A DNA stretch of 64,000 nt from Gamaleyavirus AN24P2, in sequence record OZ035810.1; one strand, given 5' to 3'. Positions 5,367 through 31,999 of the stretch are shown here, piece after piece; position 1 is the first letter of the stretch; each line of letters starts with the position of its first letter. Under the pieces are notes generated by a model, which was not told where the DNA came from, made no database searches, and saw only the letters and a list, made by a program, of their open reading frames with translations. A program made the translations under genes and the position numbers.

Positions 5367-7670
5367 ATGAATAAGACTTTTACGCAGCCTACTGGCCCAG
5401 TGGCCAAGCAGACTAACAAACAAGCTATAGCTAGATTGCTTGGAATAAAAACAGCACAGGTAGGATATTTAAACACATCTACCCCTACTGAAGCATACTC
5501 TGTGCTATATGATGAAGTTTCACAGTTGCCTTTTTATAGGGGCAATGCTACGGGTACTCCTATTTCGTGGTTATACAATGCTACCCTGAATGTGCTGGAT
5601 ATAACAACTACAGCTGGGTCTTACTCATTAGTGTTGGCTAATAAAGTCATAGAGTTAAAAAATGACTTAGCATCTGAAGATGCAGGTAAAGGGGCTGATA
5701 CAATTAAAGTTCGCAAAGGCAGGGCAAGCGTTACACCCAGTCGCACAGTAGCAGAAATGCTTCTGGATGGTATGGCAGGTTTACGTAAAAACTTCGGAGC
5801 AATCGGTAATGGTATAGCTGATGATACTAACGCTATCAACGATATGTGGGAATGTATGTATGATGCATCCTACAAAAGATTTGGAGCACTTACTGATGAG
5901 GCAGCCATCGGTTTTATGCTTCAAAAAGGTCCAGCCTGCTTGGTTGAAAATGGGGTGTATGTCTACTCTGGTCCTGGTTTAACTTTACCTAGTGGTTCTG
6001 CATTTGTAATGAATATCCATGGTGAAAGCGCTCTTTCATCTAAGTTCCTTATTACCTCAGATGCTTATCTTTTTGATTTGGATAATAACCCAGTACATAG
6101 TTATTTGGGTAAATTAACTATCCATGGGGGAAGAGGGGCTGTACGAATGAAATCCAATGCCCGAACTACGGCGGGTATTCATCTATTTGAGCATCTACGC
6201 TTATCTCGTTTTAGTGAATGTGGTATCAGTAATAACTCCATAGATATGCCATACTTTCGTGTAAGGGATTCAATTTTTTATGGTGGCTTATCTTCCCAGG
6301 CTATCGGTGTTTGCGTATCAGGGTTATCCGCTGGGGGTTATATCAGGGATAACTTATTTTCTGATTTACGTTATGGAATTAAATTAGCTATTGGTCGCCA
6401 AGGTACTAGCGTAGTTAATGGACCGGCTACACCATATAATATTGAAGGTAACGATTTTTATCGTACCGGTAATCGTGGTGCCATAGACCCAGATACGCAA
6501 GAATTTGTTCAGTATGCATCTTATGATGTATGGATTGAACCAGGAGCTACTGCAACCAACTCTGGCCGTGCTATTAGATTTGCAGGCAATAAGTTTGGTC
6601 AGGAATACTTAGTATCCCCAGATTCGCATGTACTTATTGCAGATGCTGCTACCCTGGGTGCTACAGACTCCCTCAATGGGGATAAGGCCCATGTTGAGAC
6701 ACTAAGTACTGGATTTGTATCTGGTTTGCTTTTTGAGGGCAATAACGTTAATTCAGCCAATGGTTCTTATATTGCTCCCTTTATAAGGTCATTCACTCCT
6801 AACGTTGGTAACTGTTATGTTGGTGATTTATATGACAATGATATGCCATCCCGCATTATTGAATACTCACCGTTAGTAACCCAAGCATCGATTACTAATC
6901 TGGCTCGTACTAACATTTTTGCTCCTAAATCTTGTTTGGGTTTGCAAAAGGGTGTAGAGCCTAAGCTAATTTCTAACTTAAATGATGTATTCAAAGTTCT
7001 GGATACTAATAACTGGTACGCCGGGCATCCGCAAGTACCCACCCCATTGGTAGGTGCTCAGCAGTCTAACTTTGTGTCTCTGTATGCGGGACCAACTAGT
7101 GGGTTAACTGTGGCAGATGCTACTAAAACATCTGTTAATAACTCTTACGGAGGTGTATACGAAGCTTCTGAAATAACCCTGGCTTCGGGTGGGCGAGCTT
7201 ATACTGTTGTTTCTGGTATGGTAGCTGGGCAGCAACACTACATTGATTTTGAACTAAAACGCGGAAGCTCTAACCCAGTGCAGAGTGTTAAAGTTGAAAT
7301 TCTCAGCACAGATACTACAGTTCTGTACCTTCGCAGAATAATCCTTATCGATACAATCTCCCGGTGGCAAAGGGTAATATTACCATTTATCCCTTCGGTA
7401 TCTGGTCAAGTAATTGTAAGATTCACTTCTTCCACTTTTATCGAGGGCTCTGCTACTAACTTCATAGTAGGTAATCTTAATGTTTATATAAACAATAACC
7501 CCATCAATACAGGGCACAATGGTGGGTTAGGTGGAACTTGGTCTATTCAGCACACTGTGCGAGGTAATCGCCATGAATGGTATGATGCTTCAGGCAATTT
7601 ACGTGCTAAAGTAGGTGCCCCAACTTCAGCAACTGATGGAGTTATCATTAGTGCTAATCCTGTAATTTGA
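5367..7670 (+). CDS. tailspike protein with pectate-lyase-like beta-helix (putative polysaccharide depolymerase)
   Basis: 767-aa protein; motif NFGAIGNGIADDTNAINDMWE matches the N-terminal signature of pectate-lyase-3-type tailspikes (FGAxGDGxxDDTxAIQ); repetitive beta-rich composition. Confidence 0.6.
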   Translation: MNKTFTQPTGPVAKQTNKQAIARLLGIKTAQVGYLNTSTPTEAYSVLYDEVSQLPFYRGNATGTPISWLYNATLNVLDITTTAGSYSLVLANKVIELKNDLASEDAGKGADTIKVRKGRASVTPSRTVAEMLLDGMAGLRKNFGAIGNGIADDTNAINDMWECMYDASYKRFGALTDEAAIGFMLQKGPACLVENGVYVYSGPGLTLPSGSAFVMNIHGESALSSKFLITSDAYLFDLDNNPVHSYLGKLTIHGGRGAVRMKSNARTTAGIHLFEHLRLSRFSECGISNNSIDMPYFRVRDSIFYGGLSSQAIGVCVSGLSAGGYIRDNLFSDLRYGIKLAIGRQGTSVVNGPATPYNIEGNDFYRTGNRGAIDPDTQEFVQYASYDVWIEPGATATNSGRAIRFAGNKFGQEYLVSPDSHVLIADAATLGATDSLNGDKAHVETLSTGFVSGLLFEGNNVNSANGSYIAPFIRSFTPNVGNCYVGDLYDNDMPSRIIEYSPLVTQASITNLARTNIFAPKSCLGLQKGVEPKLISNLNDVFKVLDTNNWYAGHPQVPTPLVGAQQSNFVSLYAGPTSGLTVADATKTSVNNSYGGVYEASEITLASGGRAYTVVSGMVAGQQHYIDFELKRGSSNPVQSVKVEILSTDTTVLYLRRIILIDTISRWQRVILPFIPSVSGQVIVRFTSSTFIEGSATNFIVGNLNVYINNNPINTGHNGGLGGTWSIQHTVRGNRHEWYDASGNLRAKVGAPTSATDGVIISANPVI

Positions 7671-7677
7671 GGTGATT

Positions 7678-7932
7678 ATGGCTCTAAAATTTACTTTTGA
7701 CTTTAATGGTATTATGGTAACCGATGGGGTACTTACTGTAAGCAAACCCATGATTGATGAGGAATCTGGAACAATTACCTTTGGGCTACTGTTCCAAGCA
7801 ACTAGTGCAGACCCGCTACTGAAATCAGTAACGCTTAGTTGTCCCTATGATCCTTTTGGAGCTGACCCATTCACTCAGGCATACGCCTATATAAAATCCT
7901 TACCAGATTATAAATCTGCCGAGGAAATTTAA
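7678..7932 (+). CDS. small hypothetical protein downstream of tailspike (possible assembly chaperone)
   Basis: ORF-track start 7672 is GTG; ATG at 7678 has a GAGGTG RBS. Followed by a terminator. Confidence 0.35.
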   Translation: MALKFTFDFNGIMVTDGVLTVSKPMIDEESGTITFGLLFQATSADPLLKSVTLSCPYDPFGADPFTQAYAYIKSLPDYKSAEEI

Positions 7933-7958
7933 TAAAAGCCCCTTACGGGGCTTTTCTT
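7933..7958 (+). terminator. rho-independent terminator
   Basis: AAAAGCCCC-TTAC-GGGGCTTTT hairpin followed by CTTCT. Confidence 0.6.
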
Positions 7959-8054
7959 CTACCCCACTCTACTATAAATAAGTATTATCTTTTGGTCAGA
8001 CTCTTCTGATACGTCCCAAATGGGTATCATTAAAGAAACATTAAGGACTTTCTC

Positions 8055-8387
8055 ATGAGCGATGAATCGACTTCGGTTCTTCTTGCCCGATTGGAGGAAA
8101 GACTGGAAACATTATTTAAGAACCAAGAAAAGGAGGAGCGTTCCAAAGATAAACTGGAACAAACTCTATCTGGTTTAAGGGAGTCTGTTCAGCAAATGGA
8201 AGGCAGACTTAAAAACGTAGAGGATAGCCTTGCTAAGTCTGAACCTACTATCGAAGAGTTTATTACCATAAAGCATAAAGTTGCTGGTGCTGGAATTTTT
8301 GGTAAGTGGGTATGGGCTATAGCAGGTGCAATCATTGGTGTATTGGCTGCTGCAAGACGGGAGATATTCGCATGGTTCGCAGGTTAA
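8055..8387 (+). CDS. membrane-anchored coiled-coil protein (first gene of lysis region)
   Basis: 110 aa; N-terminal charged helical region and C-terminal hydrophobic segment WVWAIAGAIIGVLAAA; AAGGA RBS. Confidence 0.4.
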   Translation: MSDESTSVLLARLEERLETLFKNQEKEERSKDKLEQTLSGLRESVQQMEGRLKNVEDSLAKSEPTIEEFITIKHKVAGAGIFGKWVWAIAGAIIGVLAAARREIFAWFAG

Positions 8388-8632
8388 AAAGAAAGATAGA
8401 GCTAGTACCTAATTGGAAGAAGTCCTGGAAATGGGCATCTGTTCAGATTAGTACGTTTGGTTTAATTCTGTTTTCTGCTGTAGATATCATCCAACCAATG
8501 GTGACGGGACTACCTCGTCACATCCTGGAAGATATTCCTCATGGTTCCAATATTGCAATCGCACTGTTTGCCTTAAACATCATGGGTAGATTGATACGAT
8601 TCCGTCCAAAGGAAGATTCACATGAAAGCTAA
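8372..8632 (+). CDS. putative holin (two transmembrane segments)
   Basis: In-frame ATG at 8372 inside ORF 8306..8632; two hydrophobic stretches (ISTFGLILFSAVDII and IAIALFALNIMG); immediately upstream of and overlapping the endolysin. Confidence 0.4.
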   Translation: MVRRLKRKIELVPNWKKSWKWASVQISTFGLILFSAVDIIQPMVTGLPRHILEDIPHGSNIAIALFALNIMGRLIRFRPKEDSHES

Positions 8633-9257
8633 ACAGAAACTTGCTGCAAAAGGTGGTGCAGTGGGAGGGGTTATCGCTGCTATTCTGGGGGCAGTGTTTT
8701 ATATGGAAGGAGGGTATGTAAATAATCCTCGTGACCCAGGTGGTGAAACTAATCATGGTATTACCCAAGCTGTAGCTAAATCCCATAAAGAAGTTCTGGC
8801 TACTGAGTATGGTTGGGATGGTTCTATGAAGGGTTTATCTAAAGAGATGGCTGCTGAGATATACATTGATGACTACGTACTTAAGCCTAATTTCGTAGCC
8901 TTCGCTAATATATCTCCTGCTATAACACACAAACTGGTTGATGCTGGTGTTAACACAGGTGTAACCAGACCAGCTAAGTGGTTGCAGCAATCCCTCAATG
9001 AAATGTCCCGTAATGGCAAAGACTACCCTAAAATACAGGTTGATGGTAAAGTCGGTGCAAGTACTGTTAATGCATATAAAGCATTACAGAAAAAGCGAGG
9101 CAAAGTTGCAGCATGTCGGGTAATGATTAAGTTACTTGATGCTAAACAACTGAACCATTACACCTCATTAAACATGCCGGATTTTACGTATGGTTGGGTA
9201 GCTAACCGAATTGGCAATGTGCCACTGGAGGCATGTAATGAAGATGCTAATCTCTAA
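8622..9257 (+). CDS. endolysin, GH108-type muramidase with C-terminal peptidoglycan-binding region and SAR-like N-terminus
   Basis: Motif EGGYVNNPRDPGGETNHGITQ is the GH108 catalytic signature; preceded by a Gly/Ala-rich weakly hydrophobic stretch GGAVGGVIAAILGAVF. Confidence 0.75.
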   Translation: MKAKQKLAAKGGAVGGVIAAILGAVFYMEGGYVNNPRDPGGETNHGITQAVAKSHKEVLATEYGWDGSMKGLSKEMAAEIYIDDYVLKPNFVAFANISPAITHKLVDAGVNTGVTRPAKWLQQSLNEMSRNGKDYPKIQVDGKVGASTVNAYKALQKKRGKVAACRVMIKLLDAKQLNHYTSLNMPDFTYGWVANRIGNVPLEACNEDANL

Positions 9258-9744
9258 AGGTTGGCCTTATCTTCTGGTGGTGGTCCTTGGGGCCACCATG
9301 TACTTTTGGGGTAATTCCAACGGACAGTCTACTGTTCAAAAGAAGTGGGATGACCAAAAGGCTGAAGACCTAAAGACAACGCAAAAATTGCAGGATAAAT
9401 ACAATGCTCTCCAAAGAAACCATAGTTATGAAGTCGGGATACTCACTTCACGGTTGCAGACGGCTGAAAGTAATTACGCAAGCGAGCTTGCTCGCGTTAG
9501 CAGTGATTACGACAGCCGGATGCAACAGTCTGAAAGACGAGCATCGGTATATAAACGTCAAGCCGAAGCCGGAACCCTTGAGTGCAGAAGTCTTGCAAGC
9601 TATGCAGCCAGACTCGACAACAGTCTTGAAGAAGGCAGACGTTTGGTTGAAGAACTCCAGGCAACTGTTAGACTCCGTGACAACCAACTAATTGAGTTGG
9701 GTAAACAAATTCAGGCTGACCGTAAACTTTTTGAACAGGAATAA
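9238..9744 (+). CDS. i-spanin (Rz-like)
   Basis: ATG at 9238 with GGAGG RBS; N-terminal TM helix [22 protein letters not shown] then a coiled-coil-prone periplasmic domain. Confidence 0.6.
9428..9691 (+). CDS. o-spanin (Rz1-like lipoprotein) embedded in the i-spanin gene in another frame
   Basis: ATG at 9428; signal peptide with RR n-region, hydrophobic [10 protein letters not shown] and lipobox-like TAGC, followed by a Pro-rich segment KPKPEP. Confidence 0.55.
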   Translation: MKSGYSLHGCRRLKVITQASLLALAVITTAGCNSLKDEHRYINVKPKPEPLSAEVLQAMQPDSTTVLKKADVWLKNSRQLLDSVTTN

Positions 9745-9746
9745 CT

Positions 9747-12017
9747 ATGGAACACCAAGACACTTTTAAGCCTTTACCAGACCCGGCTCAATCAGAGAAG
9801 TTAACGGACTGGAAGAAGGAACCAAGTATCCAATTACTGAAGGGTGATTTGGAATCAGCTAAACCTGCTCACGATGCAATCATGGCACAGATTCGTGAGT
9901 GGAATGATCTTATGGAAGTTAAGGGTAAGGCTAAGCCACCAAAGGTGAAGGGACGGTCACAAGTCCAACCTAGACTGGTTCGCCGTCAGGCAGAATGGAG
10001 ATATGCTCCATTGTCTGAACCATTCCTCTCTTCTAACAAACTCTTTAAGGTAACTCCGGTTACTTTTGAAGATGAATTAGCTGCACGTCAAAATGAACTG
10101 GTTCTTAACTACCAATTCCGTACCCAGCTTAATAGAGTAAAGCTGGTAGATGATTACGTGCACAGTGTTGTGGATGATGGTACTGGTATTGCTCGTATTG
10201 GCTGGGAACGTAAGACTGTTAAGATTAAAACAGAAACTCCAGTATTCCAGTTGTATCCAATTGAGAACCAGGAACAAGCAGATGTTCTTCAACAGGCTCT
10301 ACAGCTTCAGGCAGAAAATCCCCGTGAGTATGACGAGACAATGCCAGAGGATATTAAGGAAGCTGTTAACTACTTTAATGAAACTGGTGAAGCTACTTAT
10401 GCAATCCAGACTGGGGTTACTGAAGTAGAAGTAGAGAAAGCACTGGTTAACAGACCTACCGTTGAAATGCTTAATCCTAATAACGTAGTTATTGACCCAA
10501 GCTGTAATGGTGATTTGGATAAGGCTCTGTATGCAGTTATCTCCTTTGAGACATGCAAAGCAGACCTTATGAAAAACAAAGACCGTTATCACAACCTAGA
10601 TAAAATTGACTGGGAAAGTTCTAGTCCTATTACTGACCCAGACCATGAAAGTAAAACCCCTAGCGACTTCCAGTTTAAGGATGCACTACGTAAGAAAGTA
10701 GTTGCTTATGAGTACTGGGGATTCTATGACATTAATGATGACGGTTCACTGGAACCAATTGTTGCTACCTGGATTGGTTCTACTCTTATTCGTATGGAGA
10801 AAAACCCATTCCCTGATGGTAAGTTACCTTTGGTAGTTGTTCCCTACATGCCCCGTAAACGTGAACTCTTCGGTGAAGCTGATGCTGAATTGTTAGGAGA
10901 TAACCAAGCAATTCTCGGTGCAACTATTCGTGGAATGATTGACCTGCTGGGTCGTAGTGCAAATGGTCAACGTGGTTATCCTAAGGGAATGTTAGATACA
11001 CTTAACCGTCGTCGATATGATGATGGACAAGACTATGAATATAACCCAATGCAAGGTAACCCTAGTCAGGCCATTATGGAACATAAGTTCCCCGAGTTAC
11101 CTCAATCAGCAATAGTAATGACTCAGATGCAGAACCAGGAAGCTGAATCACTAACTGGTGTTAAAGCATTTTCCGGTGGTGTAACTGGTTCAGCTTATGG
11201 TGATGTAGCTGCTGGTATTCGAGGTGCACTTGATGCAGCATCCAAACGGGAGATGGCAATTCTTCGTCGATTAGCTAAAGGTATGGCAGACATTGGTACT
11301 AAGATTTGTGCAATGAATGCTGTGTTTTTATCTGAGAAAGAAGTAGTACGTATTACCAATGAGCAGTATGTAGAAATTAATCGTGAAGACCTTAAAGGTA
11401 ATTTCGACATTGAGGTTGATATTAATACTGCTGAAATTGATAACCAGAAATCTCAGGATTTGAGCTTCATGGTTCAAACATTGGGTAATACGGTTGACCA
11501 AACTATTACATTATCTCTTGTAGCAAAGATTGCAGAGCTTAAACGTATGCCAGACCTTGCTCATGAGTTACGTAATTGGAAACCACAGCCAGATCCTATG
11601 GAAGAACAGCTTAAGCAGTTAGCAATTCAGAAAGCACAACTAGAGAATGAAGAGTTGAAAAGTAAGATTGCACTTAATAATGCTAAGGCTAAAGAAGCTG
11701 CTTCCAGTGGTGACCTTAAAGATTTGGATTATCTGGAACAGGAATCTGGTACTAAACATGCCCGAGATATGGAAAAACAAAAAGCACAATCTCAAGGAAA
11801 CCAAAACCTTCAGATAACTAAGGCATTGACAACACCCGTTAAAGAAGGGGAAACTACCCCCAACATATCTGCTGCTGTTGGATATAATACTTTGACTAAC
11901 GGGAACTCTATACCAGAACGTGATTTAGCTGCTCAACAAGACCCGGCTTACTCACTTAGTTCCCAATACTATGACCCTAGCCAAGACCCAGCATCGGCTC
12001 TTGGTATGAACCTATAA
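9747..12017 (+). CDS. portal protein
   Basis: 756-aa protein (N4 portal is of similar size); follows the lysis cassette and precedes scaffold/capsid genes; acidic C-terminus. Confidence 0.7.
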
Positions 12018-21577: not shown

Positions 21578-21640
21578 TACACTGGCTTACTGTAGAGTAA
21601 GCTTCTTATATACGATATAAGTTTGAACAGGAAACATGCT

Positions 21641-24600
21641 ATGTCAACATTTGACCGTCTGGCAGGTTTCGCAGACAGCATCACTAATGCTAAGCAAGTC
21701 GATGTCTCTACTGCTACCTCTCAGAAGCAAGCTGCACAAGGGCAAAGCCCTTTCCAATTAACCCCAGAGAATGCTTACAATCTCCAAACTGGACGAGTAG
21801 GTAATTTAGGAATCGGTGCGTTCGAACCAGGTTCCCTCCAAGCTGATTTCACTCAGGCTTCCCCATTAGAAATTCTTAATAAATATGGTAATGAGCAAGG
21901 TCTACAGATTCTTAATAGCCGAGCTAATGCTGCTGATGCTGTACGTCAGGACTTATCTAAACAACGTACTAACGCAGAAGCATTTGGTGATACTCTTTCT
22001 GGTGTTGGTCTTGGTGTTGCTAATACCCTGGGGGGCATTGCTGCTCTTGGCACAGGTTTGGTCAATGATAATGCCGGGGCATCCATTGCTTCCGGGATGG
22101 ATTGGTTGAATGAAGGTGTGCACAATCTCCAGTCTGATGCACTGAATGTTACCCGTAAGGTTGTTCAGAATCAGAACCAGATTTCTGCTCAAAAGAACCA
22201 GAAACTTTACGAACAAGACATCAAAAATGGGGAGAGCAGCTTGGTTGCCTCCCTGTCTCGCATTGGTCGTGATGCTTTTGATTCTGTTGCTAATACACTT
22301 GATAACGGTATGGCTGCTACTGATGGGCTAAGTGAAGGTGTTGGTTCCCTCTTTACTGGTGGTCCACTTATCCGTGGTGTATCTGCACTCGGCAAAGTAA
22401 TGGTAGGTGGTGATAAAGCCGTTAAGGGTATTACCTTAGCTGCTGAGTTAGGTTCTCGTCCTGCACAGGTTGCATTGTCTGCTGGTCGTGTTGCTGCACC
22501 TGCTATTGCAATTGGTGGTATGGAAGCTGGTGGTGCATACCAACAGACTGCTTCTGAAATCATGAAGATGTCACATCAAGAATTAGCAAGTAAGTCTCCT
22601 GTTTATCAACAACATATTGCTGATGGTTTATCTCCTGATGAAGCTCGTCGTCAGACTGCATCTGAAACAGGTATCATTGCTGCTGGCTTAACTGCTCCGG
22701 TTGCTGCTGCTACTGGTCCACTGGTATCTAAATTTGAACTTAATCCACTTAAGGTAGGTTCACTGGTTGGTGCTGGTTCTAACATGCTGCGTGAAACTGT
22801 AGAAGAAGGTATCCAGTCTGGTACTAGTCAGTTTGCACAGAACAAAGCAATTCAAGGTAATGTAGATGCTAAACGTGACTTGCTTAAAGGTGTTGGTGAA
22901 CAAGCAGGTCTTGGTGCACTTTACGGCTTCGGTAGTGCTGGGGTTGCTCAAGCTCCAGGTGCAACTGTTAAAGCTGTTGGTGCTACTGCTGGTCCAGCCC
23001 TTCGTACTACTTTAGCCGGTGCTTCCCTGGTTGGTAGTGCACTAGCAAAAGCTGCATCTCCTCTTACTAACATCCTGGTTCAACGTGGTGAAGAAGTTGC
23101 TAAACGAAATGAACAAGCATCCCCTGTAGCTGATGCTACGGTTAATGCTGCTGCACAGGAAGCTGCTGCTCAGGCAGAACAAGCACAAGCAACTGTACAG
23201 GAAGCAGTAGATGCAATGGATATTTCTCCGGAAGAGAAAGCTGCTGCTACCCAGTATGCTGCTGACTTAACTCAGGCAATGAAGTTTGACCCGGTAGAAT
23301 TGGAACAAACTAACCCAGCAATCCGTGAAGCTGTTTCTGGTTCCACTAACCGTGTTGAAGCTATTCAGAAGATGGCTGACCTGGTTAATACTGCTGAGGA
23401 TCCTAACGTTCAAATGGAAGCTGCAATCCAGATGTATGACAATATCATGTCTATGGATAGCTTCATTAACCGTGACCCGGGTGCTCTGGCTAATCTGGAA
23501 CAAGGTTCTCCTGCTGCTGCGATTGTAGACCAGTTCTCCGGTCTGATGGCTAACGTACAGAATACTCCGAAGGTACTCCGTGCATTTCGTGCCATCCATT
23601 CCATGATTCAGGAACAGGCTGAAGCGGGTAAATTGAAAGCTACTGAAGAAGCTAACCAAGCTCAGGCAAACAACATTGCTATGGCTGCTGATGTGTCTCC
23701 AGAAGTTCTGGATGTAGAATCAGTGAACATGGTTCTGAAGCACGCAAGTGAAGGTAAGATTACATTAGGGAATCGTCAGCGTGCTGCCCTGCAATCTGCT
23801 GCTGCTCTATTGCAAGGAGCACGAGAATTTGACGCTAAAGCAGAAGAACTGGGCTTACGTCCTCAAGACATTGTTAGTAAACAAATTAAAACCGACGAAT
23901 CTCGTTCTAATGAAGGCCAGTACTCTGCGTTGCAACATGCTAAACGCATTCGTTCTGCGTACAACTCTGGTAACTTCGATTTGGCTTCCGCTTATCTCGA
24001 CGACTTTATGAAGTTCGCCCAGCACATGCAGAATAAGGTCGGAGCGTTGAATGAGCATTTGATTTCTGGGAATGCGGATAAGAATAAGTCTGTCCATTAT
24101 CAGGCTCTTACTCCCTCCCGTGAATGGGTACGTAGTCGTACTGGCCTCGGTGTCAATCCGTATGATACCAAGTCTGTTAAGTTTGCCCAGCAAGTAGGAC
24201 TGGAGGCCAAAACCGTAGCTGATATTGTTAATGCACTTGCTACGGCTTACCCGGAGCTTAATGTTTCTCATGTTAAAGTTACTCCATTAGATTCACGTCT
24301 GGACAAGCCTGCTGCCCAGGTGGTTAAAGAGTTCCGTCAGGGCAATCTTGATGCTGCTCAATCCCAACAGACCAATGAACCAGTGAATCAGGTTGATGAA
24401 ACTCCTGTTACAAAACAGGAACCAGTTACCCCTACTGTACAGACTAAACCCTCTGTTAGTGAAGCTGTTAAAACAGAACCTACTATTAAAGAGTCTAAAC
24501 CACAGTCTGTAAAAGAACCTGAGAACCAGTCCGAAAAGCAGGATGCTGCCATCACTAATGAGGATACCACTCAGGAAGTAGCTGAAACTAAAACGGAAAT

Positions 24601-27600
24601 GGAAGCAGTGTTCCCTGTCTATAACAATGACAAGACACCGAGCCAGTTCCTTAAAGCATTTGCTCTGCCGGAAGAACCTAAGACTCGTACCATTGGTTCT
24701 GAATCTCCTTTGACTGATGTTAAGCAAGCACTGTCTTCTGCTGCTCGCTTTGAAGCATTCACACAAAAAGAAAATAACGCTCTCACAAGTGATGTGATGA
24801 AACGTTATCAGGACTTACTGGGCTTTGGTGAAACTCTGAAGACTACTCTTTCTGACCGTCTGGCTAAGTTCCTTGCTAACAAAAATGTTGGTAAACGTTT
24901 TGCAGAAGGTACTGAAGCTAACCGTTGGGTAGGTGGTAAACTGCTGAATATCGTTGAACAAGACGGTGACACCTTTAAGTTCAATGACCAGTTGTTAGAG
25001 ACTGCTGTACTTGCTGGTCTGCAATGGCGACTAACTGCTACACAGAATGCTGCTGTTAAAGACATGAAAGACATAGCTGCTATTACTGGTGTAGAAGCAT
25101 CCCTGTTACCTGAAGGTATTCTGGCTGAATTTGAGAATGCTCAGACTCTGGTTGAAGCTACTAGCTCACTGGCTCAAAAGATTGAATCCTACTGGGGTTT
25201 GAATCGTAATCCTAATGCACCACTGGGCTATACCAAGGGTATCCCAATGGCAATGGCTACAGAGATTCTGTCTTCCCTTATTGAGATGGGTGAAGTTAAA
25301 GAGTCTATGCTGGATGTGTCTGAAATTGACCCAGCCTCCGATAAGACTGTAGGTCTGTACACCATTGAGAAGCTGGATGATAACGATGCCATTAACAATT
25401 TCCCTACTGCTATTGAGGAAGCTGTCCTCGTAGAACCAGAAGAGAAAATGTACTTTGGTGATGATATTCCTTCCGTGGCTCAAACTCAGTTACGTAATCC
25501 GGCTGTTAAGAATACCCCTGAACAGAAAGCTGCTCTTAAAGCAGAACAGGCTACTGAGTTCCGTGTACACATGCCTATGGTTAACTTCTATGAAGCATTA
25601 GGTCGTGACAACATTCTGGAACTGATGGGTGCTGGTACGCTTAATCCTGAACTACTGAACGTAAACACTGCTAAATCACTGGAAGGTAAGAACCTGTCAG
25701 TGTCTATGGCATATGATTCCTTGTTTGGGGTAATCAATCAGGTTCAGGAACAGGAGAATGGACTGGATACTCCTATTCACTATGGTTATAACATGACCCG
25801 TGTAGGTCGTATGCAGATGCTTGGTAAGAATAACCCACAATCCAGTAAGCTGGTGCGTGAAGCAATTCTGCCAACCTTCTCTACTATTGACTTGAGTAAT
25901 GAAAACAGCCAAACGTTCTCAGACTTCCAGTTAGGTCTGGCTCAGGCATTAGGCATCAAGGTACATAACATGTCCCGTGAAGCTATGTCTGAAAAGCTGA
26001 CTAAAGCTCTGGAAGGTAACCTGAAACCTGCTGTTGATATGATGGTTGAGTTTGATAAGTCTGGTCACTTACCAGTTGATGCAGTGGATATTCTGAAGAC
26101 GTCTCTTGGTGGCGATAAATCCTTCGTAGCTCTTATGGCTCTTATGGAATATGCCCGTTACCTGAACAGTGATGACCGTGCCAACTTTAATACCCCACTG
26201 TACGTTGAAGCCGATGGTGTAACTAACGGACCAATCAACGCAATGGTATTAATGACGGGTGGTAAGTTCACTTCAGACTGGGTTAAGAATACTGCTAAAG
26301 GTGGTCTGTTCTTTGGTAAAGCTGGTAAGACTATGAATGAACACCGTTCACAGGATGACAGTGTTGACTTGTATGAAGCATCTACCAACAGTCTGCAACA
26401 AGCTCTGAATGAGTTACGTACTACTTACCGTAACAACGTTCCGGTTATGAACCAGATGAATCATCTCCAAAAGTTAATGGACCTGTTCATTAAAGACTTT
26501 AACCTGAACGAAGACGGTACTCTGGACCTGAAGCGTGGTATCGCTAAAAACCCACTGACTATTACCATCTATGGTTCCGGTGCTCGTGGTATTGCAGGCA
26601 AGATGGTTAGTGCAATTACTGATACCATCTATGAACGCTTCAGTGACGTTCTGCAAGCTCGCGCTGCTGACCCTAGCATTTCCCCAGCTATGGCAATGTT
26701 TGGTAAAGAGGCTGCGTCTGAGACTGATGCTCAGGCTATGCTGGATACTTTCCTTACATCTATGGAAGCACTGACTGGTAATGTTCCAGTTATGCGTAAA
26801 GGTGAGCTGTCTATTCAACAAGTAGAAGGTGCTCTGACTGGTAAGTTAGACCCCCAGAAGTTTACTGTATCTGGTAATGCTCTGAAGAACCTGCAAGAGA
26901 ACATGCTTCACTTGTTCGTTGAACCAATGCGTACTGGTATTCGAAATACTGTTGGTGAAGGTCTAATGCACTCTACTGAGAACTTGCAGAAGGCTACCCA
27001 GATTCAGTCTCTGGTATTGCAAGACATGTTCCAGCAAGCAGTACAGACTAAGCTGGCAGAAAAAGAAAAAGACCCAACATGGAAGAAGGGTGATTTCTTA
27101 ACTCAGAAAGAACTGAACGAAATCCAGGAATCATTGTCTCCACTGGCTCCAATGATTGAGACTGGTTCGCAGACTTTCTACATTGCTGGTAGTGAGAATA
27201 CTGACGTTGCTAACCAAGTACTGGCTACCAACTTAGATGACCGTATGCGTGTGCCAATGAGCATCTATGCTCCTTCACAGGCAGGTGTTGCAGGTATTCC
27301 ATTTATGACCATTGGTACTGGCGATGGCATGATGATGCAGACCCTTTCTACTATGAAAGGTGCTCCGAAGAATACCCTGAAAATCTTTGATGGTATGAAC
27401 ATTGGTATCAATGACATCACTGATGCAAGTCGTAAAGCTAACGAGGCTGTATATACTTCCTGGCAGGGGAATCCTATCAAGAATGTTTATGACTCCTTTG
27501 CTAAGTTCATGAAGAACGTAGACTTCAGCAAACTGTCCGATGAAACTAAACAGGCTATCGCTAAGTCTGCTTTGGAATATGACCAGCGTGAGGGTGCTAC

Positions 27601-30600
27601 TGATGCCTTATTACGTGCAGGTGCTGAACAGATTGAGCGTAACTTGCGTAACATTGCTCTTGGTGTAGATATTCGCCATAAAGTAATGAACCAGGTACAG
27701 ACTACTGTTGACCAGATGGCTGCTGTAGGTGCTCCTTATGTGAACAACGGTAAAATCTCTCTGGAAGGTCTGACTGTAGACCAGCAAGTAGCTAAGCTGA
27801 ACGAATTGTTTGATGCTGAATTAAACAAACGTCGTGATGCAGTACGTGCTGCTAAAGCAGAACCAGTGAAAGAAGTACCAGCAATTGAGCAGGTTGGTCG
27901 TGTACTGAAGTCTGGTGTACGTCTGCTGTCTAATACTGCTATCTCTAAGCTGGCTAAAGAGATGTCTCAGGAACAACAAGCAGTACTGAAAGAAGTACAG
28001 AAATCCCCTGCTGCTAAAGACTACAAGGTTGTCTATGGTACACCTGCCCAACTGGATGCTTACGCTATTGAGAAGAACATTACTCGCCCAGCACCGGAAG
28101 ATATTGAAGCTGCTGAAGCAGGTAATGCATACGGCTGGACTAACTTCGAAGATAAGACCATTTATCTAGTTACCCCTTCCTTAGAAACTCTGGTTCATGA
28201 ATTGGTACATGCTTCTACTTTTGAATCTGTACTGACTCACTATGAAGGTACTCCTAATGAAGCAGTTCAGAACATTGAAGACCTGATGAACCAGTTCCGT
28301 GCTCTGGATGTTAAGGATGAATCTCCGGCAGTACGTGAAGCGTATGCTGATGCACTTAATACCATTAATGGTCACTTGTCCAATGGATTCATTGAGCCAT
28401 CAATGGCTAAAGCTGCTGCACTTAACGAGTACATGGCTTGGGGCTTAACCAACCGTGAACTGATTAGTAAGCAGAAGAAAACCACTGCACTTAAGACTAT
28501 GGTTCAGGCTGTGTATGAAGCAATCAAGCGTCTGGTATTTGGGCGTAAGAAAGCACCAGCTAATGCAGATGATATGTTCTCCGGCTTACTGTTTAACTCT
28601 GCTGTAGTAATGCGAGGACAAGCTCCTACTGCTGCTGTAGCTAAAGATACTACCCTGTTCCATAACAAAGCATACGGTGATAATACTCGTCTGGAAGAAT
28701 TAGGAAAAACCTTCGATAAGTTAATTACTGACTACATTGGTTCAGAACCAGTACAACAAGTAATTCGTAAAGGTAAGTTCTCTGATGCAGTAGTGAATGC
28801 AACTAAAGTAACCCGTGATGTTCAGGCTCATGGCTTCGCTATGAATATGCAGGAACAGCGTCTCTTTACTAACATTGTTGCTGCTCTGGCTACTGAGGCT
28901 GCTATTAACCCTGCTGCTTTGGCTCGTGCACAGGAATACTACACGCATGTTACTAAGAACCTGACTGTTGAAGCATTTATGGCTGACCCAGATAGTACTA
29001 ACCCTGCTGACCGTTATTACGCTCAACAGAAGTTCGATACCATCATGGGTGCTAACAATATTGAGTTTGATGCACAGGGACGTTCTTCCTTACTGCCTAC
29101 CTTTGTTGGGCTGGCAATGGTAAGTGAAGAAGTACGTAAGGTACTGGCTGATATTCCTGTTATGAAAGCAGATAAGCAATCCGGTAATACAGTTGATGCA
29201 ATGCTGACTAACATTGGTACTGCTGCAATGGCTAGTCTGAATGCTCGTGTAGCAGGTGATACCAAAGCTACTAATGTACAGGAAGGTATGGATGCACTGG
29301 CTCAAACAATCATGCAGACTAGCCTTAATGCACAGTCCTTTTATGATTCTGTTGCTACTCCTAGTGGTAATGCTATTGACCGTGCTAACCAGTATCTGGT
29401 GGACTCTATTGATGTATTGTCTACCCGTGCTTTAGAAGGTGCTCGTGAAGTTGCAGCTAATACCAAGAACCCGTTGGTTAAAGGTGCTGCTCATGCTGCA
29501 CAACTGATTGCTGCTATTGCTACAGAGAAGAATGGTGAAATCGTAGCCGAAGGAGTTATGGCTGCAATGAACCAGGGTAAGGTATGGCAACCTTTCCATG
29601 ACCTGGTTAATGACTTAACTGGTCGTACTAAGAGCAATGCTTCTGTGTATGATTTGATTAAGGCAGTTCGTGCACAGGTACAGGCTGACCGTCAACAATT
29701 CCGTGAACATTTGCCTACTACTATCGCATCTAAGTTCAGCCGTAAGCTGACTAATGATGAGTGGAAAGCAATGCACACTGGCATGGGTAAAACTGACTTG
29801 GCTGTCCTGCGTGACACTATGTCTTTGGCTGAAATCCGTGATTTGCTGTCGGACCAAAAGATTGTTGACCGTGAAGTGAATAAGCTGGAAGCAGATTTGC
29901 AGAAGCAAGCTGGACGTAACTGGCCTCTGATTAGTCGTAAATCTAAGCAACTGGCTCAGTTTATGATTAATGGTACAGTTGGTAATAACTTGCTGCGTAA
30001 TGCTACTGCAATTTCTCGTTTACTGGGTGAACGTAAGACTACTAGTTCTATTGTAGATGTAGCTAAACTGGATAAACTGATTACCCTGTATGCACTGGAA
30101 GCAATGAGTAATACTGACCGTGAGATGCTATCTTCACTGGCTCAAACAGAAGTTGATGGGATTGATTTTGCTACTTCTTACCTGGTTGGTCAGCGTAAAG
30201 ATGAAATGGCTAAAGCTAAGTCTGACATGCGTGCAACCCTGAACCAGTACAAAGGTTACATTCCTGGTGAGACTAAACAAGGTGTTAACCTGATTGTTGC
30301 TGAAGACAGTCAATTTGCTGATTTGATTGAGAAGTCCTATGTGCGACTGGGTACTTATCAGGGTAGCTCTGCTAATCGTGGTCCAGCACGTAGTTACTAC
30401 TTTGCACCAGTACAGGCACAGGCTCCATTCTCACAGGGTATCTTACAGAACGTTCGTAATACTGCTGGTGGTGTAGACCTTGGTACAGGCTTTACGATGG
30501 GTACAATGGTAGCTGGTCGTATCACTGACAAGCCTTCCGTAGACCGTATCACTAAAGCACTGGCTCGTGGTGAACGTGGTAATGAACCACTGCTGCCTGT

Positions 30601-31999
30601 GTATGATGACAAAGGTAATGTAGTTGCCTATGAGCAATCTATTGACCCTAACATGCTGAAGCACATTGAGGGTGAGAACCATCTTGCTCGTGCAATTGGT
30701 GTATGGCGTGGTCGTCAGGTAGAGGAAGCTAAGGCCCAGCGTTTCAACGATATGCTGATTGAAAATCTGCATAGCATGTACGAGAACGACATTAAAATGT
30801 CTGCCTCTAATAAGTCCCAGTATGTGAACCTTCTTGGTTCTAAACTGGACCCAGTAACTGCTGATGCTCTTAAACTGATGAACACTGAAACACGTCAGAA
30901 AGCAGAAAGCCTGTTTGGACCCGGTGAACTGTGGGTTCGTCGTGATATGCTGAATGATGCACTAGGCTATCGTGCAGCTTCTGTAGGTGATGCCTGGTCT
31001 GGCAATTCTCGTTGGTCCCCAGAAACACTGGATACCTTCAAGAAAGCTATGTTAGGTGTATTTGGCAACCGTGCTTACAAGTACGTAATGGGTGGTGAGA
31101 ACCTGGTTCAGAACTTAGTTAAAGAAGCTAAGACTCTGATTGTAGTTAAGTCAGTAGTTGTACCTGCTGTTAACTTCTTAGCTAACCTTTACCAGATGGT
31201 TGGTCGTGGTGTACCTGTTAAGAACATTGCTAAGAGCATTCCACAGAAGACTGCTGAGATTAACCAGTACCTGAAATCTCGTCTGCGTCAGGTAGATGCA
31301 GAAGCAGAATTACGAGCAGCTACTAATCCGAACCAGATTCGTAAACTTAAAGCTGAGATTCAGTCCATTACTGATAGTCATAAGCGTATGAGTATCTGGC
31401 CTCTATTAGAAGCTGGGGAGTTCTCTTCAATTGCAGATGCTGGTATTGGACGTGATGATATCCTGATTACTGAGGGTAAACTCCATGAATACATGGATAA
31501 GCTGGCTGATAAGTTACCTAAGTCAGTACGTACTGCTGGTCGTTATGCACTTATCACTAAGGATACTGCTTTGTTCCAGGGTATCCAGAAAACGGTTGAG
31601 TACTCTGACTTTATCGCTAAAGCAATCATCTATGATGACTTAACTCAGCGTAAAGGTAAGACACGTGAAGAAGCACTTGGACGTGTAACTGAAGAGTTCA
31701 TTAACTATGACCGTCTGCCGGGACGTTTCCGTGGCTATATGGAAAGTGTTGGTCTTATGTGGTTCTACAACTTTAAGATTCGTTCTGCAAAAGTTGCAGT
31801 GTCCATGATTCGTAATAACCCGGTCCATGCAGCAATGGCGATGTTGGCTCCAACTCCTACCATGTTTGGTAACGTTGGCTTACCTATTCAGGACAACATC
31901 TTTAGCATTGCTGCTAAGGATAGTCTGGATTACTCTTGGGGCTTTGGACAAGGGCTTCGTGCTCACAACCTGAACCCTTGGATGAACCTGGTAAACTAA
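21641..31999 (+). CDS. virion-encapsidated RNA polymerase (vRNAP, N4 gp50-like)
   Basis: Single uninterrupted ORF of about 3,452 aa from the ATG at 21641 (ORF-track start 21623 is TTG); size and position match N4 vRNAP; AGGAAA RBS. Confidence 0.8.
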   Translation: MSTFDRLAGFADSITNAKQVDVSTATSQKQAAQGQSPFQLTPENAYNLQTGRVGNLGIGAFEPGSLQADFTQASPLEILNKYGNEQGLQILNSRANAADAVRQDLSKQRTNAEAFGDTLSGVGLGVANTLGGIAALGTGLVNDNAGASIASGMDWLNEGVHNLQSDALNVTRKVVQNQNQISAQKNQKLYEQDIKNGESSLVASLSRIGRDAFDSVANTLDNGMAATDGLSEGVGSLFTGGPLIRGVSALGKVMVGGDKAVKGITLAAELGSRPAQVALSAGRVAAPAIAIGGMEAGGAYQQTASEIMKMSHQELASKSPVYQQHIADGLSPDEARRQTASETGIIAAGLTAPVAAATGPLVSKFELNPLKVGSLVGAGSNMLRETVEEGIQSGTSQFAQNKAIQGNVDAKRDLLKGVGEQAGLGALYGFGSAGVAQAPGATVKAVGATAGPALRTTLAGASLVGSALAKAASPLTNILVQRGEEVAKRNEQASPVADATVNAAAQEAAAQAEQAQATVQEAVDAMDISPEEKAAATQYAADLTQAMKFDPVELEQTNPAIREAVSGSTNRVEAIQKMADLVNTAEDPNVQMEAAIQMYDNIMSMDSFINRDPGALANLEQGSPAAAIVDQFSGLMANVQNTPKVLRAFRAIHSMIQEQAEAGKLKATEEANQAQANNIAMAADVSPEVLDVESVNMVLKHASEGKITLGNRQRAALQSAAALLQGAREFDAKAEELGLRPQDIVSKQIKTDESRSNEGQYSALQHAKRIRSAYNSGNFDLASAYLDDFMKFAQHMQNKVGALNEHLISGNADKNKSVHYQALTPSREWVRSRTGLGVNPYDTKSVKFAQQVGLEAKTVADIVNALATAYPELNVSHVKVTPLDSRLDKPAAQVVKEFRQGNLDAAQSQQTNEPVNQVDETPVTKQEPVTPTVQTKPSVSEAVKTEPTIKESKPQSVKEPENQSEKQDAAITNEDTTQEVAETKTEMEAVFPVYNNDKTPSQFLKAFALPEEPKTRTIGSESPLTDVKQALSSAARFEAFTQKENNALTSDVMKRYQDLLGFGETLKTTLSDRLAKFLANKNVGKRFAEGTEANRWVGGKLLNIVEQDGDTFKFNDQLLETAVLAGLQWRLTATQNAAVKDMKDIAAITGVEASLLPEGILAEFENAQTLVEATSSLAQKIESYWGLNRNPNAPLGYTKGIPMAMATEILSSLIEMGEVKESMLDVSEIDPASDKTVGLYTIEKLDDNDAINNFPTAIEEAVLVEPEEKMYFGDDIPSVAQTQLRNPAVKNTPEQKAALKAEQATEFRVHMPMVNFYEALGRDNILELMGAGTLNPELLNVNTAKSLEGKNLSVSMAYDSLFGVINQVQEQENGLDTPIHYGYNMTRVGRMQMLGKNNPQSSKLVREAILPTFSTIDLSNENSQTFSDFQLGLAQALGIKVHNMSREAMSEKLTKALEGNLKPAVDMMVEFDKSGHLPVDAVDILKTSLGGDKSFVALMALMEYARYLNSDDRANFNTPLYVEADGVTNGPINAMVLMTGGKFTSDWVKNTAKGGLFFGKAGKTMNEHRSQDDSVDLYEASTNSLQQALNELRTTYRNNVPVMNQMNHLQKLMDLFIKDFNLNEDGTLDLKRGIAKNPLTITIYGSGARGIAGKMVSAITDTIYERFSDVLQARAADPSISPAMAMFGKEAASETDAQAMLDTFLTSMEALTGNVPVMRKGELSIQQVEGALTGKLDPQKFTVSGNALKNLQENMLHLFVEPMRTGIRNTVGEGLMHSTENLQKATQIQSLVLQDMFQQAVQTKLAEKEKDPTWKKGDFLTQKELNEIQESLSPLAPMIETGSQTFYIAGSENTDVANQVLATNLDDRMRVPMSIYAPSQAGVAGIPFMTIGTGDGMMMQTLSTMKGAPKNTLKIFDGMNIGINDITDASRKANEAVYTSWQGNPIKNVYDSFAKFMKNVDFSKLSDETKQAIAKSALEYDQREGATDALLRAGAEQIERNLRNIALGVDIRHKVMNQVQTTVDQMAAVGAPYVNNGKISLEGLTVDQQVAKLNELFDAELNKRRDAVRAAKAEPVKEVPAIEQVGRVLKSGVRLLSNTAISKLAKEMSQEQQAVLKEVQKSPAAKDYKVVYGTPAQLDAYAIEKNITRPAPEDIEAAEAGNAYGWTNFEDKTIYLVTPSLETLVHELVHASTFESVLTHYEGTPNEAVQNIEDLMNQFRALDVKDESPAVREAYADALNTINGHLSNGFIEPSMAKAAALNEYMAWGLTNRELISKQKKTTALKTMVQAVYEAIKRLVFGRKKAPANADDMFSGLLFNSAVVMRGQAPTAAVAKDTTLFHNKAYGDNTRLEELGKTFDKLITDYIGSEPVQQVIRKGKFSDAVVNATKVTRDVQAHGFAMNMQEQRLFTNIVAALATEAAINPAALARAQEYYTHVTKNLTVEAFMADPDSTNPADRYYAQQKFDTIMGANNIEFDAQGRSSLLPTFVGLAMVSEEVRKVLADIPVMKADKQSGNTVDAMLTNIGTAAMASLNARVAGDTKATNVQEGMDALAQTIMQTSLNAQSFYDSVATPSGNAIDRANQYLVDSIDVLSTRALEGAREVAANTKNPLVKGAAHAAQLIAAIATEKNGEIVAEGVMAAMNQGKVWQPFHDLVNDLTGRTKSNASVYDLIKAVRAQVQADRQQFREHLPTTIASKFSRKLTNDEWKAMHTGMGKTDLAVLRDTMSLAEIRDLLSDQKIVDREVNKLEADLQKQAGRNWPLISRKSKQLAQFMINGTVGNNLLRNATAISRLLGERKTTSSIVDVAKLDKLITLYALEAMSNTDREMLSSLAQTEVDGIDFATSYLVGQRKDEMAKAKSDMRATLNQYKGYIPGETKQGVNLIVAEDSQFADLIEKSYVRLGTYQGSSANRGPARSYYFAPVQAQAPFSQGILQNVRNTAGGVDLGTGFTMGTMVAGRITDKPSVDRITKALARGERGNEPLLPVYDDKGNVVAYEQSIDPNMLKHIEGENHLARAIGVWRGRQVEEAKAQRFNDMLIENLHSMYENDIKMSASNKSQYVNLLGSKLDPVTADALKLMNTETRQKAESLFGPGELWVRRDMLNDALGYRAASVGDAWSGNSRWSPETLDTFKKAMLGVFGNRAYKYVMGGENLVQNLVKEAKTLIVVKSVVVPAVNFLANLYQMVGRGVPVKNIAKSIPQKTAEINQYLKSRLRQVDAEAELRAATNPNQIRKLKAEIQSITDSHKRMSIWPLLEAGEFSSIADAGIGRDDILITEGKLHEYMDKLADKLPKSVRTAGRYALITKDTALFQGIQKTVEYSDFIAKAIIYDDLTQRKGKTREEALGRVTEEFINYDRLPGRFRGYMESVGLMWFYNFKIRSAKVAVSMIRNNPVHAAMAMLAPTPTMFGNVGLPIQDNIFSIAAKDSLDYSWGFGQGLRAHNLNPWMNLVN

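Follow-up and report, generated by a model that had tools for sequence, protein, structure and literature searches.

Results

Gene layout of the locus

The window analysed here is the first 64 kb (64,000 nucleotides) of Gamaleyavirus AN24P2, a G7C-group N4-like coliphage and podophage, and is 100% identical to OZ035740.1, a record that carries no annotation. No mention of AN24P2 was found in the literature. The window includes a vRNAP-sized ORF of 3458 aa at 21623-31999. Five translationally coupled genes occupy positions 8055-9744 on the + strand, an interval that runs exactly from the first start codon to the stop codon of the i-spanin gene. Successive genes overlap by 16, 11 and 20 nt, and an SD of its own was found for every gene of the cassette. 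All five frames are open and conserved across 17 related loci, and both this conservation and the openness of the frames are far beyond chance.

A preliminary description of this DNA had proposed an overlapping-gene lysis cassette here, and each of the genes it listed was recovered on the + strand with the same boundaries. We consider the interval very probably the usual set of five host-lysis genes of an N4-like coliphage. Cassettes of this kind are already known, the N4 counterpart having been dissected in a 2025 preprint whose experiments identified a pinholin, a holin that acts late, a SAR endolysin and embedded spanins that are functional (Awuah et al., 10.1101/2025.11.12.688109). For AN24P2, gene structure, domains, motifs, orthology and conservation were obtained directly, and topology calls were based on hydropathy, pattern rules and orthology.

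A putative terminator-like hairpin at 7934..7957 on the + strand (stem AAAAGCCCC-TTAC-GGGGCTTTT, then a U-rich tail) sits between the upstream tail-fibre module and the lysis cassette; it was reported on the - strand because its stem is symmetric. The RNA fold of this element is -13.9 kcal/mol (z = -4.1), and none of 200 shuffled sequences folded as well. A sigma-70 promoter scan of 7600-10000 returned 4 sites against 4.9 expected, with no + strand site from the hairpin to 8055, and the Rfam and tRNA scans gave no match in the cassette region.

Pinholin homologue and holin

The first gene (8055-8387, + strand, 110 aa; SD AAGGA 7 nt 5' of the start) had been described as encoding a coiled-coil membrane protein. 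Its product does combine a coiled-coil N-terminal part, predicted to be cytoplasmic, with a single C-terminal hydrophobic segment or TMD at residues ~78-102 (nt 8286-8354 for ~78-100, from hydropathy), and the assignment can be refined. The protein matches phrog_5211 (E=8e-50) and shares 64.5% global identity with the N4 pinholin gp63, being near-identical to it from residue 59 onward. The conserved 'LIN domain' lies at residues 62-72 (nt 8238-8270), where S62, T65, I70, T71 and I72 of N4 are all identical, and the TMD/LIN region is kept in the 17 related loci. On this homology we assign the protein as the gp63 pinholin homologue and not as an accessory component.

N4 gp63 is the protein that times lysis in N4, and it complements a defect in the S21 pinholin but not one in S105 (Awuah et al.). 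By analogy, the AN24P2 homologue is likely the lysis timer, small-hole formation by a gp63-type protein being known only for N4 gp63 itself. In S21 the first of two TMDs is a SAR domain that leaves the membrane; proteins of the gp63 type instead have a long coiled coil in the cytoplasm and a single TMD at the C-terminus. With one C-terminal hydrophobic segment in place of two TMDs, the AN24P2 protein falls outside the S21 family of pinholins, and it may nonetheless work in a pinholin-like way. The internal Met17 start of N4 gp63 is a Leu codon (CTG) in AN24P2.

The second gene (8372-8632, + strand, 86 aa) encodes a homologue of the N4 gp62 holin (57.5% global identity), with a GGAG SD 8 nt 5' of ATG 8372. 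It carries PF25612 DUF7940 (49.1 bits against a cut-off of 27) and matches phrog_1356 'holin' (E=5e-29). Hydrophobic stretches at residues 21-48 and 59-77 correspond to two TMDs, in agreement with the two-TM holin candidate of the earlier reading, and the basic N-terminus is predicted to be cytoplasmic, giving an N-in/C-in topology. DeepTMHMM placed the TM segments of the 86-aa holin of UE-M6, a Gamaleyavirus that shares 94.3% identity with AN24P2 in its cassette DNA, at 22-37 and 61-71.

A longer holin frame of 108 aa opens at GTG 8306 (also ATG 8312). We do not favour this form as a lambda-like dual-start antiholin, since no SD precedes 8306 or 8312; the long starts are by-products of the conserved GKWVW codons in the overlapping pinholin frame, and the extension is shut by a stop in L012 and L013. 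NCBIfam gave no match for the holin or the spanins.

Endolysin and its N-terminal segment

The third gene (8622-9257, + strand, 211 aa) encodes a homologue of the N4 SAR endolysin gp61, with 66.4% global identity and a match to phrog_315 (E=5e-42). The GH108 assignment made beforehand is upheld by PF05838 at residues 24-113 (72.5 bits, cut-off 21.2), followed by PF09374 PG_binding_3 at residues 117-196 (33.3 bits, cut-off 24.6). The protein begins with the Lys-rich MKAKQKLAAK (residues 1-10) and continues with GGAVGGVIAAILGAVFYM. Residues 11-28 (nt 8652-8705) form the hydrophobic segment, a run of 18 uncharged residues that includes 9 Gly/Ala (50%) and has a peak 17-mer of KD 2.02 and 47% G+A. 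This stretch is kept in the 17 related loci.

We aligned the endolysin to the solved GH108 structures 6v3z, 6v40 and 7dnp. The catalytic triad E29/D38/T43 (nt 8706-8750) aligns with E17/D26/T31 of SagA at the same spacing (E29-x8-D38-x4-T43), and residues 16-28 align to SagA 4-16, the helix preceding the catalytic Glu. The hydrophobic stretch leads directly into the catalytic EGGY motif (E29), with no polar c-region between them. As aligned, the SAR segment also serves the muramidase fold as its helix alpha1; this placement is taken from the alignment to solved homologues only, because the single-sequence AlphaFold2 model (mean pLDDT 36.9) was unusable.

The N-terminus could instead be read as an ordinary cleavable Sec signal peptide, from which a secreted and processed enzyme would result that is restrained only by the membrane potential; the Lys44-type endolysins of Oenococcus fOg44 are the model for such an enzyme. 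The layout of an n-region with 4 Lys and an h-region is signal-peptide-like, and the small residues of L-G-A24|V25 could loosely fit a -3/-1 rule. However, no polar c-region precedes Glu29, and cleavage at this site would remove part of the fold, given that residues 16-28 align to the pre-Glu helix. In N4, adding negative charge to the segment hastens lysis and does not block export: SAR charge substitutions in gp61 such as G12E, the position of G15 in the AN24P2 endolysin, lead to rapid lysis, and gp61, which is membrane-associated, causes gradual cell rounding when expressed alone (Awuah et al.). A cleavable signal is highly improbable on this evidence.

In a second reading the muramidase is soluble and cytoplasmic, and the stretch is simply its first helix, which is buried. 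The two-TMD holin would then make the large holes needed for release, with the coiled-coil protein in the role of an antiholin or regulator. The C-terminal part of the stretch is indeed homologous to alpha1 of soluble GH108 proteins. The nearest NCBIfam model is 'holin-associated N-acetylmuramidase' (59.7 bits, below its cut-off of 240), and the gp63 homologue of Stenotrophomonas phage Piffle was called a 'putative antiholin' by CPT annotators. Yet the soluble homologues are charged or polar in that helix (GTFAKAMPHVFSD in SagA), whereas the AN24P2 segment has 18 consecutive uncharged residues. TtsA (6v40), Sen1395 (6v3z) and Brucella SagA (7dnp) have the same catalytic and PG-binding domains (E=9e-28 to 9e-12) and the same Glu-Asp-Thr triad spacing, but they have neither the Lys-rich n-region nor the Gly/Ala-rich extension (GGAVGG) that makes alpha1 a membrane segment, and they serve secretion systems, not phage release. 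The N4 experiments also speak against a soluble enzyme: gp61 lyses with the phage 21 pinholin, which is impassable to folded proteins, gp63 itself acts as a pinholin, and the canonical holin gp62 triggers late and is dispensable (Awuah et al.). Pinholin-supported lysis is known for N4 gp61 with S21 and would be expected of the AN24P2 endolysin by orthology, and we regard a soluble muramidase as very unlikely.

Composition bears on the remaining alternative, a permanent type II signal anchor with an endolysin that acts while tethered and is never released. The segment's peak Kyte-Doolittle value of 2.02 is not below that of the i-spanin TMD (1.57), so hydropathy by itself does not discriminate an anchor from a SAR segment. 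A Gly+Ala content of about 50% is, however, typical of SAR segments, and the catalytic Glu lies at the membrane boundary with the segment forming part of the fold. N4 genetics furthermore tie endolysin release to lysis timing (Awuah et al.), and we rate permanent anchoring the least likely of the three alternatives.

A SAR endolysin is the reading that is supported, and we expect the AN24P2 enzyme to be tethered in an inactive state, to stay uncleaved and to be freed on depolarisation. The SAR N-terminus first suggested as a possibility agrees with the Lys-flanked, Gly/Ala-rich segment and has the support of orthology, because N4 gp61 is experimentally a SAR endolysin. Earlier gp61 work, as cited by Awuah et al., is that of Stojkovic & Rothman-Denes 2007.

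Embedded spanin pair

The fourth gene (9238-9744, + strand, 168 aa) encodes an i-spanin that matches phrog_6197 'Rz-like spanin' (E=2e-75) and shares 53.8% global identity with N4 gp60; a GGAGG SD lies 6 nt 5' of its ATG at 9238. It is predicted to be a type II protein with an N-terminal TMD at residues ~8-25 (nt 9259-9312; the hydropathy scan gave a hydrophobic stretch at residues 3-20) and a helical domain of ~143 residues in the periplasm.

Wholly inside this gene, in the +1 frame, lies the o-spanin (9404/9428-9691, + strand), the homologue of N4 gp60a (60.9% global identity; tblastn E=1.7e-27). The precursor would be 95 aa long from ATG 9404 or 87 aa from ATG 9428. A hydrophobic leader is followed by the lipobox TTAG|C, which fits a PROSITE PS51257-style pattern (Cys codon 9521-9523), and the +2/+3 residues are Asn-Ser, so that +2 is not Asp. 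The mature product of 56 aa (9521-9688), with 4 Pro, is a predicted lipoprotein. The frame is open and the lipobox Cys invariant in 17/17 relatives. ATG 9404 is conserved together with an SD, ATG 9428 is ACG in 6 loci, and comparison of the loci indicates 9404, not 9428, as the conserved start. Synonymous variation in the i-spanin frame fell from 42% outside the o-spanin overlap to 28% within it, and to 21% where the mature o-spanin is encoded, with Fisher p=0.07 for the drop over the whole overlap.

The i-spanin with a lipoprotein o-spanin embedded in another frame, as anticipated, is thus borne out by phrog_6197, the lipobox and homology to N4 gp60/gp60a. The o-spanin itself had no match in Pfam or PHROGs, and its identification draws on the lipobox and the homology to gp60a. 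The further comparison to lambda Rz/Rz1 holds for the nested architecture and not for family membership. As in lambda, an o-spanin gene is nested in the +1 frame of an i-spanin gene, and a type II protein of the inner membrane, helical in its periplasmic part, is paired with a short Pro-containing lipoprotein of the outer membrane. The AN24P2 spanins belong to a different sequence family from those of lambda (phrog_6197) and have no Pfam Rz-family match; the one Pfam hit, DUF2514, scores 19.4 bits and stays below its cut-off of 26. Because the lipidated Cys is the only one in the mature o-spanin, the pair cannot form a lambda-type intermolecular disulfide. N4 gp60/gp60a complement lambda Rz/Rz1 defects (Awuah et al.).

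Comparison with N4 and with annotated relatives

AN24P2 and N4 have the same five genes in the same order, gp63-gp62-gp61-gp60/gp60a, beside the portal gene, with 54-66% global amino-acid identity over the cassette. Overlaps of 16 and 20 nt are found in both, while the holin/endolysin junction is 11 nt in AN24P2 and 14 nt in N4. In both phages the endolysin has the same catalytic region and a SAR segment in which the position of N4 G12 is a Gly, the mature o-spanin is 56 aa long, and its gene is nested in the +1 frame. The differences include ~55 divergent N-terminal residues of the AN24P2 gp63 homologue and an endolysin that, unlike that of N4, starts with ATG and has an n-region 3 residues longer and more Lys-rich. 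The AN24P2 o-spanin is without the third in-frame Met that N4 has near the lipobox, which gives a signal peptide of 31-39 aa.

G7C, IME11, EC1-UPM, UE-M6, Bas96 and Mimir124 are 92-99% identical to AN24P2 in nucleotide sequence over all or most of the cassette. These Gamaleyavirus records annotate the holin, the endolysin and the Rz-like spanin; Bas96 also has an entry for the o-spanin, which Mimir124 gives as a misc_feature. The gp63 homologue is either 'hypothetical' or mislabelled as a 'tail length tape-measure protein', and the records do not mention that the endolysin is of the SAR type. Antibacterial activity has been shown for the cloned holin and endolysin of UE-M6; the UE-M6 and EC1-UPM papers name no lysis proteins beyond a class II holin, an endolysin and a spanin, and report no membrane segment in the endolysin.

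A homology breakpoint, which we call a recombination breakpoint, falls within the pinholin gene at codon ~50-54. To its left, the ~150 nt at 8055-~8205 of the window have no detectable nucleotide similarity in most of the annotated Gamaleyavirus cassettes compared. This N-terminal allele is 94-98% identical to those of IME11, Mimir124 and Klebsiella KP8-like phages, whereas KP8-like endolysins are only ~80% identical.

Discussion

We consider an N4-like mechanism the best explanation of the cassette, with a probability of about 0.85. Export, tethering, release, pinhole formation and spanin function are here inferred from the N4 experiments and from SAR-endolysin biology. The cassette would be expressed late and most likely work as in N4. 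The muramidase would be exported by Sec and held inactive in the inner membrane by its weakly hydrophobic SAR helix. If this helix is GH108 alpha1 and ends one residue before Glu29, the active site could not form for as long as the helix stays in the membrane. Meanwhile the 110-aa tail-anchored gp63 homologue would build up in the inner membrane and, at a set time, form small depolarising holes. Collapse of the proton-motive force would then release the SAR helix, and the enzyme would refold in the periplasm and degrade the murein. The two-TMD gp62 homologue would be a second, late-triggering and dispensable canonical holin. The i-spanin in the inner membrane and the lipoprotein o-spanin in the outer membrane would form a complex across the periplasm, which would disrupt the outer membrane after the murein has been degraded.

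The same logic is seen in S21/R21 of phage 21 and Lyz of P1, where a Sec-exported, tethered and inactive endolysin is freed by small-hole depolarisation, and N4 gp61 and gp63 can replace R21 and S21 (Awuah et al.). R21 and Lyz are GH24 enzymes of the T4-lysozyme type, without sequence relationship to the GH108 and PG_binding_3 endolysin of AN24P2.

The importance of these assignments lies mainly in annotation quality: in many relatives the pinholin is mislabelled, the o-spanin is missing and the endolysin tether is ignored. The SAR tether is also relevant to recombinant antibacterial endolysins, in which the helix will affect toxicity, solubility and activity.

G7C, which belongs to the same genus, is reported not to show the lysis inhibition of N4 (Awuah et al.), and regulation in AN24P2 may therefore differ from that in N4. 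One could suppose that the cytoplasmic coiled-coil half of the gp63-type pinholin is a horizontally exchanged module that sets whether or how lysis inhibition is imposed. If true, the exchanged half would account for the reported absence of N4-type lysis inhibition from G7C, whose 'LIN domain' is identical. We find this proposal doubtful, and a simpler reading of the exchange is that this half hitch-hiked with the neighbouring tail-fibre module, which is often swapped. The pinholins of N4 and of the G7C type have the LIN/TMD region in common and differ in the cytoplasmic half, and a comparison of N4, which has lysis inhibition, with G7C-type phages, for which none is reported in G7C, could help to map the determinant.

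Layout and relatives of the lysis cassette

The overlapping lysis genes that a preliminary description had placed at 8055-9744 were all found on the + strand, with the first start codon exactly at 8055 and the last stop codon ending exactly at 9744. Adjacent genes share 16, 11 and 20 nt, and a Shine-Dalgarno (SD) match lies 6-8 nt upstream of every preferred start. All five frames were open in 17 related IMG/VR loci and in Bas96, Mimir124 and N4, and the signal-anchor-release (SAR) stretch, the transmembrane (TMD) and lysis-inhibition (LIN) region of the gp63 homologue, both holin TMDs and the lipobox Cys were kept across the same set. In phage N4, gp63-gp62-gp61-gp60 adjoin the portal gene gp59 and are collinear with this cassette, with near-identical overlaps; the portal gene of the window lies to the right at 9747-12017. 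The N4 cassette was dissected experimentally by the Ramsey laboratory in a 2025 preprint (Awuah et al. 2025, doi 10.1101/2025.11.12.688109), and identities to N4 proteins are reported here from global amino-acid alignments.

By megablast, 7900-9900 matched at 100% and at the same coordinates in OZ035740.1, a record of Gamaleyavirus AN24P2 without annotation, and 54 more records matched at 90-99% identity. The matching records are G7C-group N4-like coliphages (Schitoviridae, Enquatrovirinae) and related Klebsiella and Shigella phages. The window also contains a 3458-aa ORF (21623-31999) whose size fits the N4-type virion RNA polymerase. Two adjacent tRNA genes were observed at 33226-33383 (-), one being tRNA-Ile (AAT) and the second having an irregular anticodon loop ('tRNA-???' by ARAGORN; Rfam score 42.8 bits).

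To the left of the cassette are a tail-fibre/tailspike-like gene of 767 aa (5367-7670) and an 86-aa ORF (7672-7932), both shared at the nucleotide level only with IME11 (L008) among the loci compared. This region, 5367-7932, appears to be a variable host-range module. Between the 86-aa ORF and the cassette we observed a strong, symmetric, GC-rich hairpin (7934-7957; -13.9 kcal/mol, z=-4.1), flanked by an A-run and a T-run and with a U-rich tail, which could be a two-way transcription terminator. The stretch from this hairpin to 8055 showed no consensus sigma-70 promoter.

Pinholin homologue and holin

The first gene (8055-8387, +) encodes 110 aa with weak matches to many coiled-coil families over residues ~5-70 and a single hydrophobic segment at 78-102, in line with the coiled-coil membrane protein described initially. 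Its product is 64.5% identical to N4 gp63, a pinholin whose only TMD is C-terminal and whose 'LIN domain' is where rapid-lysis mutations cluster (S62, T65, I70, T71, I72; Awuah et al. 2025). All five of these residues are identical in the window; on these sequence grounds the protein is identified as a homologue of the N4 lysis timer gp63. N4 gp63 has an internal Met17 start, whereas the window protein has Leu (CTG) at this position.

Homologues of gp63 in GenBank relatives (e.g. NC_019423 IME11, NC_048700 KP8, PP301343 UE-M6) are widely labelled 'tail length tape-measure protein' or 'tail needle protein', likely a propagated mis-annotation, and ENA record OY979416 carries 'RIIA/RIIB lysis inhibitor' labels across the cassette region. 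Stretches of 44-62 residues that partly match gp63 (66-73% identity) also occur in two large unrelated myophage records, Salmonella phage SKML-39 (NC_019910.1, 1-186, the very start of the record) and Klebsiella phage ZCKP1 (NC_047994.1, 68846-68977); either chimeric assembly or transfer of a fragment might account for them.

A sharp homology breakpoint was located at ~8204-8217, codon ~50-54 of the gp63-like gene, and most Gamaleyaviruses align only rightwards of it. The left side (N-terminal coiled coil, intergenic region and hairpin) is common to IME11, Mimir124, an IMG/VR contig and Klebsiella KP8-like phages, whose gp63 proteins share 94-98% amino-acid identity with the window, while the KP8-like endolysins are only ~80% identical to that of the window. 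A variable N-terminal tail is likewise reported by Awuah et al. (2025). Because the breakpoint borders the tail-fibre module, the simplest explanation is hitch-hiking with host-range swaps; that the swapped cytoplasmic half of this homologue has a regulatory meaning is a less likely possibility.

The second gene (8372-8632, +) agrees with the proposed two-TM holin candidate, encoding 86 aa with two hydrophobic segments and matching PF25612/DUF7940 (49.1 bits, cut-off 27) and phrog_1356 'holin'. It is 57.5% identical to N4 gp62, a canonical, late-triggering and dispensable holin (Awuah et al. 2025) for which a dual start has been discussed. The holin frame does continue upstream for 22 codons (8306-8371), across the pinholin TMD codons, but no SD was found before GTG 8306 or ATG 8312, the starts of the long form. 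Both starts stem from conserved GKWVW codons of the overlapping pinholin frame, and a stop codon interrupts this upstream part in two related loci (L012/L013). For these reasons a lambda-like dual start that yields holin and antiholin is doubtful in this phage, and the 86-aa protein is favoured as the actual product.

Probable SAR endolysin

The third gene (8622-9257, +) encodes the expected GH108 endolysin, a 211-aa protein with GH108 (72.5 bits) and PG_binding_3 (33.3 bits) domains and 66.4% identity to N4 gp61. Its N-terminus, MKAKQKLAAK-GGAVGGVIAAILGAVFYM-E29GGY, consists of four Lys and 18 uncharged residues (9/18 Gly or Ala), with the catalytic motif directly after. The Gly/Ala-rich composition noted previously is therefore present, and the suggested SAR property would follow by orthology with N4 gp61, for which it is established. 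N4 gp61 is functional together with either lambda S105 or the phage 21 pinholin, and on its own it makes cells round up gradually; negative charges put into its N-terminal segment, e.g. G12E, bring about rapid lysis (Awuah et al. 2025). The counterpart of G12 in the window protein, G15, is conserved.

Residues E29, D38 and T43 align to the SagA catalytic triad E17, D26 and T31 (solved GH108 structures 6v3z, 6v40, 7dnp; E=9e-28 to 9e-12), and residues 16-28 align to SagA 4-16, the helix before the catalytic Glu. Since the segment falls on this helix, we infer that it is probably the enzyme's own first helix, devoid of charge and lengthened by a Lys-rich n-region, and not an appended leader. The active site would then be unable to form while the first helix stays in the bilayer. 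The same logic applies in P1 Lyz and R21. The single-sequence AlphaFold model of the endolysin was poor (pLDDT 36.9). An ordinary cleavable signal peptide is disfavoured, as the N-terminus has no polar c-region and cleavage would take away part of the GH108 fold.

Spanin pair

The i-spanin gene (9238-9744, +; 168 aa, N-terminal TMD; phrog_6197 'Rz-like spanin', E=2e-75) wholly contains the o-spanin ORF (9404/9428-9691, +) in the +1 frame, confirming the embedded lipoprotein described earlier. The o-spanin has a lipobox with Cys, Asn at +2 and a mature part of 56 residues with four Pro, in which no second Cys was found. The two proteins are 53.8% and 60.9% identical to N4 gp60 and gp60a, respectively, an embedded pair shown to work as spanins and to complement lambda Rz/Rz1 (Awuah et al. 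2025). The proposed likeness to lambda Rz/Rz1 held for the embedded out-of-frame layout but not for the sequence family, which is that of N4 gp60, with no Rz Pfam match.

Synonymous variation was observed at 28% of i-spanin codons in the o-spanin overlap and 21% in the mature-lipoprotein part, compared to 42% outside, which fits dual coding although it is not significant on its own (whole overlap versus outside, Fisher p=0.07). ATG 9404 was present in 17/17 non-N4 relatives with AGGA 8 nt upstream, while ATG 9428, annotated as the start in Bas96, lacks an SD and is ACG in 6/19 loci. The precursor is thus more likely to have 95 aa, with a lipoprotein signal of unusual length (39 residues), and the mature product is unchanged.

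Discussion

In every respect that can be judged from sequence, the cassette proteins belong to the N4 families. Only the N4 orthologues are known to be exported uncleaved and released on depolarisation, to form pinholes or to complement as spanins, and the window functions would follow from that orthology. Phage 21 is of the same functional type (pinholin, SAR endolysin and two-component spanin), but its proteins are unrelated: its endolysin is GH24 rather than GH108, and its pinholin has two TMDs, whereas the gp63 homologue has one, C-terminal. The EC1-UPM and UE-M6 papers describe a class II holin, a GH108 and PG_binding_3 endolysin and an Rz-like spanin, and are silent on the SAR stretch, on the gp63 homologue and on the o-spanin nested in the i-spanin gene.

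The feature is real and the preliminary description and its interpretation are correct; it is the standard lysis cassette of N4-like phages. As G7C is reported to be without lysis inhibition (Awuah et al. 2025), the regulation of lysis timing may differ from N4 despite the identical LIN domain. This type of cassette is now characterised experimentally in the type phage N4 and partly annotated in sister genomes.
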